A DNA stretch of 64,000 nucleotides from an uncultured Armatimonadia bacterium (GTDB lineage Bacteria > Armatimonadota > Zipacnadia > CAVVLO01), in assembly GCA_963749155.1 (NCBI GenBank), contig CAVVLO010000002.1:192001-256000 (forward strand), read 5' to 3'. Each line of letters begins with the position of its first letter. The first letter of the stretch is position 1. The notes under the pieces were generated by a model. The model saw only the letters and a list, made by a program, of their open reading frames with translations, was not told the origin of the DNA and ran no database searches. Positions 3,962-11,440 of the stretch are shown here, in pieces. A program made the position numbers and the translations under genes.

Positions 3962-5920
3962 TTGACAGCCAAGATTGGAGAGAAGAAACTGGCCCTTGCA
4001 AGTCAGCGACTTGGGGACATTATCTTCGATCTCTTGCTTGAGGCGGGGCGTCCCCTCGACCAGCGAGAGCTTGATGAAGGGATAAAGGGAACACTGGGCA
4101 AGTCCATCTTCCCGTTGGCTACACGGCGAGTACTTCGCCGAGATAGTCGACTTCAGGAGACAGAGGGCGACTTCGATCTTCTGGCGCGTCAAGTGCTTCC
4201 AGATCGTTCTCTTGATAGCGGAGTTAAGCATCTGCTTCTGGCCGCTGGCAGGCCGCTCAGTCTGCAGCAGCTAGCCAATGAACTAGCCCTGGCAAAGACC
4301 AGATCAGCCGACAGTATCGCCGAGTTGATTGCCAAACTCGCCGAGCGCGATTTTTCTTCTTTTATACTAGCGGGAGAAAGGTTGTTCTTGCGTGAGTGGC
4401 TGCTGTTCGTGACCGATAACGAGGAGGAATTTGTCCTTCTCGACAACTTCGTCAACGAACTGCCCACGCTGGAAGAATTCGAGAAGCATATCAAGTTGCC
4501 TTCCCGCAAGCCTGCCACACCGCTTGCGCTGGCCGAGAAGCTCCTCGAAGCCGCAAATGAGCCTGTTTCTAACAAATACCTGCAGTGGGCTATTTGGAAG
4601 GTCTTCGGCGAGTTCCCGGATGCGATCGGTTTCTACGAGCAACTTGAAAAGTCAGACTTCACCGCTCTGCTTAGCGGACCCAACTGGTTGCCCAGCAAGG
4701 ACACCGCAGGTTTGGCGACAATGCTGGTCGACTTCAGCGTCGAACTCCAGGAAGAGGACCGCGAGCAGCTTTCCAAGCTCAATCTGGCCGTTCTGCTCAA
4801 GCAGCCTGCCCCGCGCGATCAGCAATATCACATCTCGGCTCGCGATAAAGAGCGCGTTCATACTTTCCTTGCCGAGCGCGAAGAACCGAGCGACCTGGCT
4901 GACATCTTGCGCGAGGTGTTCGCCGTTTATCCAAGTGACGACACTTTCCTGGCGGCTGCTCATGCCCTGACCGAGCGTCTGCACCAGGATGAACGCTTTA
5001 TCGCTGGCGAAGCTTCAGAGACAAGCTGGATGGTCACCGAGGAAGTACCTGAAGAGGTGCGTATCATCCCCGAGAGACTCATCCCGATACTATCGGAAGA
5101 GCTGTCAGCAGAAGGCGACCCAGTAGATGCCGAACTCGAGGACGAAGGTCTGACCAGAGGTATGGTCAATCTGGCCGATTTCGTCCATCTGCCCGAACTT
5201 GAGGACATAGGCGAAGAAGAAGAAGTCGACCCGGATATCATCCCGGACGAGGCGCCGGCGGAAGTTATCCTGCCTGTTATGTATCACCATTTCGTGACTG
5301 GTATGTTGAAGTATCGCAAACTCGACTGGGGCTTCTTCCCCGAGGACGAAGACCTGGTTCGAGTTACTTTCCTGGACGATCGCGGCGAGCTCTACAATGG
5401 CTGGGTCAACAACGAGCTGGGGCTTGTTTATGGGCTTGCCAAGTGGTTTGAGCGCCAGCACGAGCAGGGGCTCACCCAGGCGGGTTGCCTCATCCATCTG
5501 AAGCCAGGCGCCGAGAACAACCAGTTCATCGTCACCTACGAAGGCGACCAGCATGAGAAGACTTTCGTATCAACGGAGCGTCTCGAAGAGCTGATTACTC
5601 TGCGCCAGAATTATAACCTGGCTACGGCGACGACCTTTGATCTGGTCTGCGCGGTGCTGGAGAACCAGAAGGATGGGCTCTCGCCCGAGGCACTGTGGGC
5701 CGAACTCAACATCCTGCGCCGCACCAGCAAGCGGGCCATCGCATCACTGCTTGCGAGTTATATGTGCTTCAACCAGTCACGGCTGCGGCCTGATCGGTGG
5801 ATATATGACTCCAAGCGTCGCGGCCAGGGCCGCATGAAGGACAAGCGCCAGTACATCATCAGTCAGGAAGCGACTGGCGAAGAGGAAGTTCAGGTAGACC
5901 GCGATACACTGGTCGAATAG
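3962..5920 (+). CDS. Acidic hypothetical protein with about five tandem winged-helix-like repeats
   Basis: 652-aa ORF, TTG start with GGAGG RBS upstream, followed by a terminator. Repeated hhLLxAxxPLxxxEL-like segments are visible by eye. Confidence 0.75.
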   Translation: MTAKIGEKKLALASQRLGDIIFDLLLEAGRPLDQRELDEGIKGTLGKSIFPLATRRVLRRDSRLQETEGDFDLLARQVLPDRSLDSGVKHLLLAAGRPLSLQQLANELALAKTRSADSIAELIAKLAERDFSSFILAGERLFLREWLLFVTDNEEEFVLLDNFVNELPTLEEFEKHIKLPSRKPATPLALAEKLLEAANEPVSNKYLQWAIWKVFGEFPDAIGFYEQLEKSDFTALLSGPNWLPSKDTAGLATMLVDFSVELQEEDREQLSKLNLAVLLKQPAPRDQQYHISARDKERVHTFLAEREEPSDLADILREVFAVYPSDDTFLAAAHALTERLHQDERFIAGEASETSWMVTEEVPEEVRIIPERLIPILSEELSAEGDPVDAELEDEGLTRGMVNLADFVHLPELEDIGEEEEVDPDIIPDEAPAEVILPVMYHHFVTGMLKYRKLDWGFFPEDEDLVRVTFLDDRGELYNGWVNNELGLVYGLAKWFERQHEQGLTQAGCLIHLKPGAENNQFIVTYEGDQHEKTFVSTERLEELITLRQNYNLATATTFDLVCAVLENQKDGLSPEALWAELNILRRTSKRAIASLLASYMCFNQSRLRPDRWIYDSKRRGQGRMKDKRQYIISQEATGEEEVQVDRDTLVE

Positions 5921-5960
5921 CCACCAACTGACAAGGAATCACAATTGAATAACCACTGAC

Positions 5961-5995
5961 GAGGGAGCGCACTCAGGTGCGCTCTCTCTTTGTTT
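5961..5995 (+). terminator. Rho-independent terminator of the ftsK-rimO operon
   Basis: GAGGGAGCGCAC-TCAG-GTGCGCTCTCTC followed by TTTGTTT. Confidence 0.8.
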
Positions 5996-6069
5996 GGAAC
6001 GCAGGAAGCCCTCCGTCTTACCCCGAATAAAGCGCAAGCCTCACCACCTGATGCCTTGAAGGATGGCTT

Positions 6070-9000
6070 ATGGCCGGTTCCTGGCGCACCGTGCGAGTGT
6101 TTGTCTCCTCTACCTTCCGTGATATGCACGCAGAACGGGACTGGCTGGCGCGGGTCGTCTTCCCGGAGCTGCGCGAACGCTGTGCAGCAGCGGCAGCTCT
6201 ACCTCACCGACGTGGACCTGCGCTGGGGGGTGACTGAGGCAGAGGCCGAACAGGGCAAGGTGCTGGCCGTTTGCCTGGAGGAGATAGACCGCTGCCGGCC
6301 TTTCTTCCTCGGCCTGCTCGGAGAACGCTATGGCTGGGTGCCGGAGACACTTCCGGAGGAAGCAGTAATCGAGTTTCCGTGGGTAGATGACCGAAAAGGG
6401 CACTCTGTAACAGAACTGGAGATACTCCACGGGGTGCTAAATAACCCGGAAATGGCGGGCCGGGCGTTCTTCTTCTTCCGCGAACTGTCAGCAAAGACTC
6501 CGTTACCTGCTGATTACCAGGCTGAAACACCGGAGGCTGCCGAGAAGCTCGCAAAGCTGAAGCAACACGATCCGGGACGCGAAACTTCCTGTAACAGAAT
6601 ATGCCTGCCGGTGGGAGGGCAAGGTCGTCGGGCTGGAGGACTTCGGCAAGGCGGTGCTGGAGGCTCTCTGGACGGCCATCTCGCGAGGAATATCCCGAAG
6701 ATGCCGAGCCACCGGATGCCCTTACCGAGGAGATAGAGCTTCACGAGGCGCAGGCGGCGCGGCTGGTGGCGGGCTTCGTCGGGCGGCAGGAAGAGAAGCG
6801 CAAGCTCACCGAGTACGTCGAGTCTGACACCCACCGGGCGCTGGCGCTGACCGGCCCGGCTGGCAGTGGCAAGTCGGCGCTGCTGGCGGATTGGTCGCTG
6901 GAGTATCGCGAGGCTCATCCAGAGGCTGAAGTGGTGCTGCACTTCGTCGGGGCAAGCCCTTCCTCGACCAGTCATATCCAGACGATGCGTCGGATTGGCG
7001 AGGAGTTGAAGCGTCGGCTTGGCCTCTTCAGCGAGCTTCCGGACAAGCCAGAGGGGCTGGAGGAGGCCTTCCGCAACCTGCTTGATAGAGGCCGGCAGCA
7101 AGGCCCAAGGGCCGGTCGTGCTGGTGCTCGATGGCCTCAACCAGCTCGAAGACTATCGGCGGGGCGCTGGGCCTGGCGTGGCTGCCGGAGTTCCTGCCGC
7201 CGGGCATCCGGATCATCGCCTCGACGCTGGAAGGGCAGCCTCTGGAGGCACTGCGCCGGCATCAGGCTGAGGAGCTTCTGCTTGCCCCTCTGACCACCCC
7301 GGAGCGGAAACAGCTTGTTACTGACTTCTTAGGGGAATATCGCAAGAAGCTCTCGGACTCTCAGCTTGAGGCGCTGCTGGCTAACGAGGCAACGGAGAAC
7401 GCCCTCTACCTCAAAGTGGCGCTCGAGGAGTTGCGCCTGTTCGGCAGCTTCGAGGAGCTGACACAGCGCATCGAGCGGCTGCCAGCGACGACGGAAGAGC
7501 TGTTCGGGCAGGTGCTGGACCGGGTAGAGGGCGACCACACAGGCGTCTTCCCCGTGGCGGAAGGGCTGGCGCTGCTTGCGGCTTCGCGGTCGGGTCTCTC
7601 AGAACGCGAACTGCTGGAGCTTGTCGGCGGCGAGGTAACAGCCCTGGCCTGGGCGCGCGTCCGGCGGAGCCTTGCGCCCTACCTCGTCCAGCGCGGAGAG
7701 CTGCTGGACTTCGCCCACCGCACTCTCTGGAAGGCCGTGAAGGCGCGCTTATGGCGACTCCCCCGAGCGCCATCTGAAGCTGGCCGACTACTTCCTCACT
7801 GCCGACATCGACTCGCCGCGTGACCGAACGCCCCTGGCAACTCGAACAAGCCGAGGCCTGGGAAGCCCTGAGAGACGAACTGGTAACCCTTGAGGTGATG
7901 GAGTGGTTCTACAACCAGAACCAAGCGCATGACTGGTTCGCCTACTGGAAGCCACTGGCGGGCAGGTATGAGCCTGGGGCCAGTTGCCTGGAAGCGGTCG
8001 AGAGAGACGGCGATGAGCTGGGAAGGGCCAGCCAGGCTAATGCGGCTGGGGCTGTTACTCAAAGCTGCCGGGCTCTACCCCCAGGCGCTGCCCCTGTATG
8101 AGCGGGCACTTGCGATAAAGTGAGGCGCAGCTTGGGGCCGACCACCCCTCCACCGCCACCAGCCTGAACAACCTGGCGGTGCTGTATGAGTCGATGGGGC
8201 AGTATGACAAGGCGCTGCCGCTGTACGAGCGGGCGCTTCGGATAAGGGAGGCGCAGCTTGGGGCCGACCACCCCTACACCGCCTTAAGCCTGAACAACCT
8301 GGCGGTGCTGTATAAGTCGATGGGGCAGTATGACAAGGCGCTGCCCCTGTGCGAGCGGGCGCTTCGGATAAGGGAGGCGCAGCTTGGGGCCGACCACCCC
8401 GACACCGCCCCAGCCTGAACAACCTGGCGGGGCTGTATTAGGCGATGGGGCAGTATGAGCAAGGCGCTGCCCCTGTATGAGCGGGCACTAGCGATAAGGG
8501 AGGCGCAGCTTGGGGCCGACCACCCCTGACCGCCGCTACAGCCTGAACAACCTGGCGGTGCTGTATTACGCGATGGGGCAGTATGAGCAAGGCGCTGCCG
8601 CTGTATGAGCGGGCACTGCGCGATAAGGGAGGCGCAGCTTGGGGCCGACCACCCCGACACCGCCACCAGCCTGAACAACCTGGCGGGGCTGTATGACGCG
8701 ATGGGGCAGTATGAGAAGGCGCTGCCCCTGTATGAGCGGGCGCTTGCGATAAGTGAGGCGCAGCTTGGGGCCGACCACCCCTCCACCGCCACCAGCCTGA
8801 ACAACCTGGCGGGGCTGTATCGAGTCGATGGGGCAGTATGACAAGGCGCTGCCCCTTTATGAGCGGGCGCTTGCGATCGATGAGGTCGCAGCTTGGGGAT
8901 GATCACCCCGACACCGCCACCAAGCCTGAACAACCTGGCAGTGCTCTATAAGTCGATGGGACAGTATGAGCAAGGCGCTGCCCCTGTATGAGCGGGCACT

Positions 9001-9350
9001 TGCGATAAGGGAGGCGCAGCTTGGGGCCGACCACCCCGACACCGCCCCAGCCTGAACAACCTGGCGGGGCTCTATCAGGCGATGGGGCAGTATGAGAAGG
9101 CGCTGCCCCTGTACGAGCGGGCACTTAGGATAATGAGGCGCAGCTTGGGGCCGACCACCCCTACCACCGCCACCAGCCTGAACAACCTGGCAGGACTGTA
9201 TTACGCGATGGGCCAATACGAGCAGGCGCTGCCACTTCTCCAGCGCGCGGCCAATATACTAGAGAAGACTTTAGGGCCTGACCATCCTAATACCAGGACA
9301 TGCCAAGCCAATATTGAAGCCCTGAGGCAGGCGATGGGGCAGGGGAAAGG
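6070..9350 (+). pseudogene. NLR-like STAND protein: DUF4062 + NACHT/P-loop NTPase + C-terminal 42-aa TPR array; multiply frameshifted (real pseudogene or assembly error)
   Basis: ATG 6070 gives [24 protein letters not shown], then in other frames DVDLRWG, CLEEIDRCRPFFLGLLGERYGW, SVTELEI (DUF4062), Walker A GPAGSGKS (6853-6876), Walker B VLVLDGLNQL, WLPE, NALYLKVALEELR, and TPR units LGADHPxTAxSLNNLAxLYxxMGQY. The true stop is unclear. Confidence 0.85.
8080..9320 (+). repeat. Tandem array of about nine near-identical 126-bp coding repeats (TPR) with degenerate ends
   Basis: GCGCAGCTTGGGG recurs at about 8125, 8251, 8377, 8503, 8632, 8758, 8886, 9014 and 9138 (period 124-129, nominal 126). Confidence 0.95.
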
Positions 9351-9354
9351 TTAC

Positions 9355-9491
9355 TCTCGAGGGTGCAGGGATTGTATCTCTGCACCGCGTCGATTAGCCA
9401 GTTCAGGTGCAAGGGTAGAACCCTTGCACCATCGAACTTTAGCGAACCCTTGCGCCACCTCGAACTTAAGCGAACCCTTGCACCCTCGAGA
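9355..9491. repeat. 137-bp palindromic element (MITE/REP-cluster-like) with 13-bp terminal inverted repeats
   Basis: TCTCGAGGGTGCA (9355-9367) and TGCACCCTCGAGA (9479-9491) are perfect reverse complements. Internal hairpin GGTGCAAGGGT-AGA-ACCCTTGCACC; GAACCCTTGC repeated at 9418, 9444 and 9472. Confidence 0.65.
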
Positions 9492-9565
9492 TTTTTGGAT
9501 ATGGCCCTTCGACAAGGCGGCCTGGCAGCCGCCTGCTCAGGACCTCGGCCTAACGGCCTCGGGCT

Positions 9566-9590
9566 GGGCGGGGCTTAGACCCGCCCCTAC
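9566..9590 (-). repeat. GTAG-type REP-like palindrome
   Basis: Minus strand reads GTAGGGGCGGGTCTAAGCCCCGCCC: a GTAG head followed by a GC-rich imperfect hairpin. Confidence 0.6.
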
Positions 9591-9625
9591 AGAAGGCGAA
9601 GCGCCGCGATGGAGTCTTCCTTTCC

Positions 9626-9654
9626 TTGACCCGGCCCGCAGGATAAGCCAGAAT
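9626..9654 (+). promoter_or_regulatory. Candidate sigma70 promoter for glnS
   Basis: TTGACC-N17-CAGAAT about 70 bp upstream of the glnS ATG. Confidence 0.4.
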
Positions 9655-9724
9655 AAGCCAAGGCGCCGCAAGAAGACTCGCGCAACGCGCGCCCTAATCC
9701 CTGTAGAAGATGAGACAGACCAAA

Positions 9725-11440
9725 ATGAGTGATCCTGGCAGCACAGAACCACTAACTGGTGACAGGCCCGAGCCAACTGACTTCATCCGCGAGGCGGTGA
9801 AGCAAGACCTGGCCGAGGGACGCTTCGACCATGTCCAGACGCGCTTCCCTCCCGAGCCAAACGCCTATCTGCATATCGGCCACGCAAAGGCAGTCTGGAT
9901 TGATTACGGCATCGCCGAGGAGTTCGGCGGGCTGTTCAACCTGCGTTTCGACGATACCAATCCGACAAAAGAAGAGCAGGAGTTTGTGGATGGCATCATT
10001 GAGGATGTCCACTGGCTTGGCGCCGACTGGGGCGACCGGTTGTTCTTTGGGTCGGACTACTTCGAGCAGATGTACGAGTGGGCGCTTGTCCTCATCAAGA
10101 AAGGCCTGGCCTATGTCTGCGACCTGACGCCTGAAGAGGTAATTGACTCGCGGGGCGCGCCTACTCGGCCAGGTGTCGAGAGTCCCTATCGCGGTCGCAG
10201 CATCGAAGAGAATCTCGACCTCTTCGAGCGGATGCGCGCCGGGGAGTTTCCGGATGGCACCAGGACGCTTCGGGCCAAGATTGATATGACCTCGCCCAAC
10301 TTGAATCTGCGCGACCCGATTATGTATCGCATCCGGCACGCAGAGCATCATCGCCAGGGCAACAAATGGTGCATCTATCCGATGTACGACTGGGCGCATG
10401 GACTGGAAGATTCCATCGAGGGCATTACGCATTCGCTGTGTTCGCTGGAATATGAGAATCACAGGCCGCTCTATGACTGGTTCCTCGAGGCGCTTGAGAT
10501 CTATCATCCAAGGCAAATTGAGTTCGCGCGGCTTAATCTCTCTTATACGGTGATGAGCAAGCGGCGCTTCATCGAGCTGGTGCAGGGCGGTTATGTAAGC
10601 GGATATGACGACCCTCGACTGCCGACCCTGGCTGGCATGCGCAGGCGTGGCTACACGCCGGAGGCTATCAAAGACTTCTGCAAGCGCATTGGGGTCGCCA
10701 AGTCAGACAGTATCGTGGACATCGCCATGCTGGAAGACTGCGTGCGAGAGCATCTCAACAAGACGGCCGCGCGTGTAATGGCCGTTATGAAGCCGCTCAA
10801 GGTCGTTCTGATCAACTATCCAGAGGACCAGATCGAAGAACTGGACGCGATAAATAATCCCGAGGACACCTCGGCTGGCAGTCGCAAGGTGCCTTTCGCC
10901 CGTGAGCTGTATATCGAACGCGAAGACTTTGCCGAAGACCCGCCGCCAAAGTTTTACAGACTGGCTCCAGGTCGCGAAGTGCGACTGCGTTATGCGTATT
11001 TCATCAAATGCGAGGAAGTAGTGAAGGACGAGAGAGGCGATATTGTCGAACTCCGCTGCACTTACGATCCTGAGACTCGCGGGGGCGATGCGCCCGATGG
11101 ACGCAAGGTGAAGAGCACTCTCCACTGGGTTGCGGCAGCCTCTGCTGTGGAAGCCGAGGTGCGCTTGTTCGACCGGTTGTTCCTGAAGCCTGATCCGGAC
11201 GAGGTAGAAGAGGGGCAGGATTATCTTGCCAACCTCAATCCTGAATCCCTGGAGATAACCTCCTGCTTCATCGAACCAGGTGCTGTCGGAGCCGAACCTG
11301 GCACGCGCTTCCAGTTCGAGCGGCAGGGGTACTTCTGTGTCGATCGTGATTCGACCCCTGAGAAGCTCTGCTTCAACAGGACGGTCACCCTGCGCGACTC
11401 ATGGGCAAAGATTGCCCAGGCCACAAAGCAGGGGAAGTAA
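9725..11440 (+). CDS. glnS: Glutamine--tRNA ligase
   Basis: [17 protein letters not shown] (HIGH motif), [24 protein letters not shown] (KMSKS-like), [23 protein letters not shown]. Start taken at the second ATG. Confidence 0.97.

Follow-up and report, generated by a model that had tools for sequence, protein, structure and literature searches.

Several described systems share parts of their design with the gene reported here. Osinski et al. (2026; bioRxiv 10.64898/2026.05.01.722283) present DUF4062 as a TIR-like domain that hydrolyzes NAD+ (an NADase); in that preprint, the Klebsiella system Swarozyc (KpSwz) is activated by a phage portal and requires residue E97, and human TEP1, which acts inside the vault particle, requires E1008 for NADase activity. 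A second DUF4062 defense family, Evangelion, is described in a further preprint (10.64898/2026.06.25.731849). Defense against phage has also been reported for bacterial NACHT proteins that carry N-terminal effectors and repeat sensors (Kibby et al., 10.1101/2022.07.19.500537), and a 2026 survey of signal transduction ATPases with numerous domains (STAND; 10.64898/2026.01.04.697583) gives tetratricopeptide repeat (TPR)-like sensors as the commonest type in Avs. The term DUF4062 occurs zero times in the main text of these last two papers, whose supplementary tables may list the clade, and the passages of the DUF4062 and STAND preprints considered here contain no defense phenotype for a DUF4062-NACHT-TPR protein. 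Here, we describe a gene of this type in a stretch of 64,000 nucleotides (nt) from an uncultured Armatimonadia bacterium (contig CAVVLO010000002.1, positions 192,001 to 256,000), referred to below as the window.

The initial annotation, made from the letters of the window, had pieced together a three-part protein across reading frames, and our Pfam searches and motif inspection found all three parts where it had placed them: an N-terminal DUF4062 domain, a nucleoside triphosphatase (NTPase) with Walker A and Walker B motifs, and a C-terminal TPR array. At positions 6070 to 9340 of the forward strand lies a true gene, whose product, a STAND protein of the DUF4062-NACHT-TPR type with about 1090 residues, is an effector-NTPase-repeat protein of the same kind as NPHP3, TEP1 and NWD. 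None of the three forward frames is continuously open from 6070 to about 9340, and their pieces sum to a single protein of about 1090 codons when the frame is followed through about 24 single-base insertions or deletions (indels) and one in-frame TAG. Because of these breaks, the locus, which we call copy A to distinguish it from three paralogs elsewhere in the genome (copies B, C and D), is unable to encode the full protein as assembled. Open frames of at least 250 codons cover 20.3% of the sequence between 6070 and 9340, in comparison to 92.7% of the window outside the gene.

The DUF4062/TIR-like domain (PF13271) spans positions 6070 to 6560, with frame shifts at about 6190 and at 6568. Its piece at 6185 to 6559 scored 34.0 bits, above the Pfam cut-off of 24.7, and the piece at 6070 to 6234 scored 23.1 bits, below the cut-off, because the shift at 6190 splits the domain. 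Positions 6595 to 7290 matched the P-loop and STAND models AAA_16, nSTAND1, NACHT and NB-ARC. The NACHT model (PF05729) reached 17.0 bits on the window piece against a cut-off of 26.7, since the shifts at 7082 and 7153 cut the domain, and exceeded the cut-off in paralogs B (27.4 bits) and D (48.2 bits); paralog D also gave 50.2 bits for DUF4062. Counting by hand on a three-way DNA alignment, we located the Walker A motif GPAGSGKS, which fits the pattern GxxxxGK[ST], at 6853 to 6876 and the Walker B motif VLVLDGLNQ at 7115 to 7144, between the two shifts just named; the G, K and S of the former and the D, L and Q of the latter are invariant in an alignment of the family. The region 3' of the NTPase (7152 to 7770) aligns along the homologs and is a helical segment of winged-helix or NPHP3_hel-like type, with a weak NPHP3_hel score of 16.6 bits, and is followed by a linker and a TPR_NPHP3-like sensor start (7800 to 8045); the two pieces after the NTPase carry weak NPHP3_hel and weak TPR_NPHP3 matches. 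The last third consists of ten tandem TPR units of 126 nt (42 residues) at 8070 to 9335, about 89% alike as DNA, on which three pieces matched TPR_12 with 148.5, 95.2 and 131.3 bits; the units belong to the TPR_12/TPR_10, or kinesin-light-chain, type.

The suggestion in the initial annotation that DUF4062 is TIR-like and may degrade nucleotides is strengthened by the NADase activity described by Osinski et al. (10.64898/2026.05.01.722283) and by a match to the TIR-like domain of human TEP1 (PDB 11gz_A), found with the window piece at an E-value of 1.6e-17 and with copy B at 1.1e-28 over 185 residues. In these alignments, the second glutamate of SVTELEI (codon at 6419 to 6421) pairs with the second glutamate of SVTEMEV in TEP1 and is invariant in all eight aligned family members. 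The glutamate of ERYGW, highlighted in the initial annotation, is replaced by glutamine in one of the eight (P0004). From these alignments, the candidate catalytic residue is likely to be the SVTELEI glutamate and not that of ERYGW, and its column would correspond to TEP1 E1008 if our guess at the chain numbering is right.

Set beside the known systems, the gene has the domain order of NPHP3 (with TPR) and of TEP1 and NWD1/NWD2 (with WD40), namely DUF4062, NACHT-type NTPase, helical domain and repeats, and the NPHP3_N, NPHP3_hel and TPR_NPHP3 models match it weakly to moderately. Unlike these eukaryotic proteins, it is bacterial, lacks TROVE/vWA or WD40 domains and carries ten near-identical 42-residue TPR units. 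With the single-protein antiphage systems Swarozyc (KpSwz) and Evangelion (Eva01), as these are described in the preprints, it shares the N-terminal DUF4062/TIR-like domain with its conserved glutamate, a conserved aromatic residue in the first strand (VRVFVSSTF in copy A) and the same proposed logic, in which a sensor part triggers NAD+ hydrolysis and abortive infection. By contrast, those proteins have a short AUX domain that binds a phage portal or answers recombinases, and neither a NACHT domain nor a TPR array; copy A is not a member of either system. The tripartite layout of bacterial NACHT and Avs proteins, as published, is the same, namely an effector at the N-terminus, a STAND NTPase whose Walker A lysine is essential and a repeat sensor at the C-terminus, whereas the Walker B of copy A reads DGLNQ instead of D[GAS]hDE and the nearest PADLOC match in the family was a weak one, of paralog B to Avs2. 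In fungal NLRs of the HET-E type, which also have a NACHT domain, the sensor is built from tandem repeats that are nearly identical and vary at few positions. Copy A resembles them in its repeat sensor, with variable unit positions 27 and 40, and differs in effector and kingdom.

DUF4062 matches fell at four loci of the genome, a metagenome-assembled-genome-like assembly of 4.17 Mb in seven contigs (written C followed by a number below; completeness 100, contamination 5.87), and tblastn searches with the window pieces pointed to the same places. Copy B (C2:557.6-560.5 kb) is 93% identical to copy A as DNA over 1.9 kb and contains four +1 shifts. Copy C (C5:34.7-38.1 kb) is 80% identical to copy A, with many shifts, mostly -1, and one TAG. 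Copy D (C3:358.5-361.7 kb) is divergent and has an open frame of 809 codons followed by one +1 shift in a CCC run. The likeness between A and B ends near position 7978, within the linker and sensor start; beyond it, the two TPR arrays are unrelated to each other, at 38-51% as protein. In copy A, the array is highly homogenized, with variation at two or three unit positions, including 27 and 40. Such a combination of a 93%-identical effector-NTPase module with unrelated arrays of homogenized units is typical of fast-evolving receptors.

The frame breaks follow a distinct pattern. Copy A has eight +1 shifts between 6190 and about 8045 (at about 6190, 6568, 6684, 7082, 7153, 7745, 7813 and 8045), and in comparison to the unit consensus its TPR array has 16 more breaks, comprising 11 single-base insertions and five deletions. 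The spacing of the unit anchors is 126, 125, 128, 128, 127, 128, 126 and 126 nt; after frame correction, the array resolves into ten clean 42-residue units with one in-frame TAG (8439 to 8441, third unit), at a codon that reads TAC, CAG, GAG, AAG or GAC elsewhere in the array. A three-way DNA alignment of A, B and C over the first 1.9 kb contained 19 gap runs, of which 17 were single bases and two in-frame triplets, so that every frame-breaking indel was exactly one base long. A comparison of A and B across 554 frame-corrected codons gave 19, 4 and 81 differences at first, second and third positions, respectively (81 of 104 at the third), and no nonsense codon in either. The ratio of non-synonymous to synonymous divergence (dN/dS, Nei-Gojobori, frame-corrected) was 0.082 for A-B, 0.139 for A-C and 0.151 for B-C, and such low values indicate that the copies diverged as working genes. 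A and B together hold 12 frame breaks against 22 non-synonymous differences, which is unlike neutral decay, as this would bring far more non-synonymous change.

The inserted bases themselves resemble second alleles. In our own reading of the alignment contexts, copies A and B contain ten insertion events; nine of these are compatible with a third-position base that has a second allele of itself written directly after it, and in seven of the ten the extra base equals the base of another paralog at that third codon position. Such doublets include GAC+T at 7153, CTT+G at 7082 and GCA+G at 6190 in A, and, in B, GAG+A, GGA+G and CTT+G, which align with window positions 6135, 7235 and 7480; A has TCG+C at 6684, where C has TGC+G. 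Within the array, GAGCAAGG occurs in three TPR units and combines two variants of the unit, GA-CAAGG and GAGCA-GG. The allele match carries more weight in this argument than the codon position of the extra bases. Homopolymer slippage was rejected as the cause of the shifts, as most sites lie outside runs, the exceptions being about 8045 (GGGG) and copy D (CCC).

The same pattern was observed in an unrelated family. In a four-copy alignment of RHS/YD-repeat genes from this genome, four of six single-base events fall where other copies differ by a single-nucleotide polymorphism (SNP), with both alleles either kept or dropped, and one copy has an open frame of 1177 codons that is interrupted in its twin. 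Single-base gaps also separate the members of other repeat pairs in this genome. The RHS/YD family is found at C1:956-982 kb, C4:155-159 kb, C6, C5:529-534 kb and C3:678 kb, its members being 90-98% alike with single-base gaps at SNP sites. These repeats cluster at or near several contig ends and may be assembly break points that contribute to the 5.87% contamination. For an independent comparison, we used short-read contigs of relatives from four metagenome runs, each from a different study and none the source of the assembly, that match the window with a likeness of at least 88%. They are one base shorter at 6188, 6562/6568, 7152 (in three runs, with all the depth there), 7812 and 8825, and one base longer at 8412, where the TPR unit of the window measures 125 nt.

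From the selection signature, the pattern of the breaks and the comparison with the family, we infer that the breaks are probably consensus errors in repeated sequence. Reads of near-identical paralogs, of the gene's own 126-nt repeats or of co-existing strains would have been piled together, leaving frame errors in the consensus. A number of observations weigh against this reading. Among ten public sequencing runs of six studies, none held more than 0.07 of 396 sampled sequence words, and no RNA run was among them. The independent contigs, with a likeness of mostly 90-95%, may represent paralog-like copies; they show relatives or such copies to be in frame, and not the window locus itself. 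The codon-position part of the doublet argument is weak alone, because an insertion placed at random would touch a third position in two thirds of cases. Copies A and B are only 93% alike, and accurate reads should distinguish them, while copy D, which nonetheless contains a +1 shift, lacks any close paralog for which it could be mistaken. Shifts are held in common at about 7745 (A and B) and 6684 (A and C), as inherited mutations would look, and the TAG codons, one in copy C and one at 8439 in copy A, require substitutions, that of copy C needing two. The last two observations also belong to the case that the indels are real and that all four paralogs are recent pseudogenes of the lineage, for instance of a costly abortive-infection NADase family. 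None of the four copies is free of breaks (about 24 in A, many in C, four in B and one in D), the adjoining genes are intact, and no intact close ortholog is present in the protein database, where the best identities besides the genome's own open reading frame (ORF) are 53% and 50%. We nevertheless consider such decay doubtful, although it is the main rival explanation. After frame correction, dN/dS is 0.08-0.15 and 81 of the 104 A-B differences lie at third positions, a signature of constraint; a shift common to A and B would predate their split and should have freed the subsequent divergence from that constraint; and 12 indels to 22 non-synonymous changes is a ratio far over that of neutral decay. 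Moreover, the breaks are all one base long, the extra bases equal the alleles of other copies, and the RHS family behaves in the same way. Real and recent single-base indels in both the four-member NLR-like family and the RHS family, placed exactly where paralogs differ, seem very unlikely; a candidate process to make them would be error-prone heteroduplex repair during gene conversion between copies, and, if true, these indels would be a natural way to switch off or shuffle immune-receptor and toxin families. Purifying selection on a corrected frame while the assembled DNA is shifted could also arise if real breaks were bypassed one by one, through ribosomal frameshifting or RNA editing, and this is the only observation in favor of recoding. 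The break sites have no motif in common, copy A would need about 19 one-base skips and five additions while copy C would need mostly additions, leaving no single mechanism, and the RHS family would require the same treatment; we know of no bacterial precedent for recoding at such density and regard it as extremely improbable.

A second question is what the protein does. By analogy with the systems described above, the C-terminal TPR array may bind a trigger, perhaps a phage protein; trigger binding would lead the NACHT NTPase to exchange nucleotide and oligomerize, a STAND-type activation; and oligomerization would cluster the N-terminal TIR-like DUF4062 heads, which would then hydrolyze NAD+ through the SVTELEI glutamate and stop the cell. 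Taken as a whole, a genuine gene that is intact in the organism, broken in the assembly by consensus or polishing errors and acting through an NADase-type immune mechanism is the explanation we favor, with moderate confidence. The defense-receptor part, which the initial annotation had put forward, agrees with the patchy distribution and multiple copies of the family and with its homogenized TPR units, and draws no support from the surroundings or from known defense families. The neighbors of copy A in the window are ftsK, a MiaB-like enzyme, a radical-SAM enzyme, a 652-residue protein, glnS, a GH36-like enzyme and other glycosidases, with neither defense genes nor a defense island among them. 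The PADLOC check suggested by the initial annotation also returned no family match for the four proteins scanned (PADLOC-DB 2.0, a library from 2023 that predates the DUF4062 systems). The best of five weak hits for paralog B was Avs2 (E-value of 2.1e-5, 20.5 bits, in the P-loop region), the intact homolog P0009 matched only a generic TPR model and, weakly, PDC-S20, and window positions 7152 to 7769 and paralog D had no match at all. The NACHT Walker B signature D[GAS]hDE, as given by Kibby et al. (10.1101/2022.07.19.500537), is replaced by DGLNQ in copies A, B and C and by D[GA]L[DN]Q in copy D and the homologs, which keep the small residue and exchange the acidic pair for N/D-Q. Furthermore, Osinski et al. 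(10.64898/2026.05.01.722283) found the full-length human proteins NPHP3, NWD1 and NWD2 to be inactive as NADases in vitro, so that NADase activity in the NPHP3-like branch is putative. The neighborhood, the PADLOC result and the inactivity of these human proteins would all suit an intact, real gene that is not an immune receptor and instead encodes a STAND-type signaling or regulatory NTPase with a housekeeping or developmental role and a catalytically silent DUF4062 domain, and a contig of an approximately 91%-alike relative, which runs from just inside the gene through the upstream flank, hints at a stable locus. Such a role appears unlikely in light of the candidate catalytic glutamate, kept in eight of eight aligned members, of a family that is multi-copy here and patchy in the class (27 of 79 genomes, with 0-13 matches each), of the 93%-identical effector-NTPase module that A and B combine with unrelated TPR arrays, and of homogenized TPR units that vary at two or three positions.

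The breadth of the family was assessed with 366 residues of copy B as the query. Among 8000 scored candidates, at least 3518 homologs of 642-2000 residues were found at an E-value of 1e-10 or lower, with a best identity of 53%. Nearly all have DUF4062, NACHT and TPR_12, some with WD40 in place of the latter; PF05729 is annotated on most of them, and in their sources they are named 'nephrocystin-3', 'TPR repeat protein' or 'DUF4062 domain-containing protein'. A protein search for near-identity returned the genome's own 411-residue ORF at 100% and a next match at 50%. The universally conserved single-copy gene that the initial annotation had named as contrary to its reading is not what was found: beyond the four loci here, DUF4062 occurs in 27 of the 79 genomes of the class that were searched, the source genome included, and in 12 of 41 of good quality, with 0-13 matches per genome. 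The family is patchy and expandable across the class. One database homolog, P0002 (1315 residues), has two DUF4062 domains in tandem before the NTPase.

Where the gene ends is uncertain, because the assembled frame has no stop past the end of the homologous protein until 9730. The last open frame (9082 to 9732) continues for about 130 codons beyond the homologous C-terminus, crossing an intergenic repeat and reaching the first codons of glnS, which begins at 9710. Paralogs B and C stop 5-11 codons after the point equivalent to the C-terminus of copy A. Either the stop of copy A has been lost or another shift lies near 9340. A separate locus at C3:449748-450355 contains TPR units 81-84% identical as DNA to the array of the window, with no DUF4062 match nearby, and is a possible donor or sink of sensor repeats.

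Upstream, a terminator-like hairpin of the 652-residue ORF lies at 5961 to 5988 on the forward strand (12 pairs, eight of them G-C, with the T-rich tail TTTGTTTGGA), and the DUF4062-NACHT-TPR gene therefore stands as its own unit; glnS (Pfam) follows at 9710 to 11440. The stand-alone position between a terminator and glnS given by the initial annotation is thus upheld, and its description of the flanks as housekeeping holds for glnS, ftsK and the radical-SAM genes and not for the upstream ORF, which has no Pfam match. This ORF, directly upstream at 3962 to 5920, encodes an acidic protein and is single-copy in the genome; it was rejected as a partner protein, as it does not accompany the paralogs. 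The G+C content of the gene is 0.64-0.66, in comparison to 0.53-0.58 in the upstream and 0.56-0.60 in the downstream flank. Relatives of glnS at about 80% identity are named Armatimonadota, and two database proteins reach 96-97%. No synteny at the locus was seen in the 20 nearest genomes compared, all of which are related at class level only, which leaves the insertion named by the initial annotation a possibility. The contig of the relative mentioned above measures 4.9 kb, begins about 40 nt inside the gene and extends upstream past 5900. An Rfam search of 5800 to 9800 gave only two long non-coding RNA matches, at chance level and far under the gathering scores.

Between the gene and glnS, outside the coding region, a dispersed intergenic repeat occupies 9406 to 9601. 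Its tandem units of 28 nt (GAACCCTTGCACC...) precede a G+C-rich hairpin (GGGCGGGG...CCCGCCCC), and the repeat is found at more than 20 places of the genome, including C3:540.5-544.3 kb and positions 1746-2325 of C1:427500-436500; on contig C1 it forms an array with a period of 202 nt. The element looks REP- or MITE-like and has no match in Rfam. A CRISPR was ruled out for the 28-nt repeats at 9406 to 9490, as there are no spacers between the units, and the element occurs in intergenic arrays of 202-nt period.

In summary, the frame breaks of this genome described here are confined to repeated genes and resemble two alleles written into one sequence, which is a lesson in data quality: in assemblies of this kind, NLR-like, RHS and other multi-copy genes should not be accepted as pseudogenes on the assembled sequence alone. 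The architecture itself is known and widespread; what is new is an Armatimonadota member with at most 53% identity to database proteins. It adds an example from this phylum to a very large and experimentally untouched branch, the bacterial DUF4062-NACHT-TPR proteins with the architecture of human NPHP3, for whose DUF4062 head two 2026 preprints now provide a testable activity, that of a TIR-like NADase.

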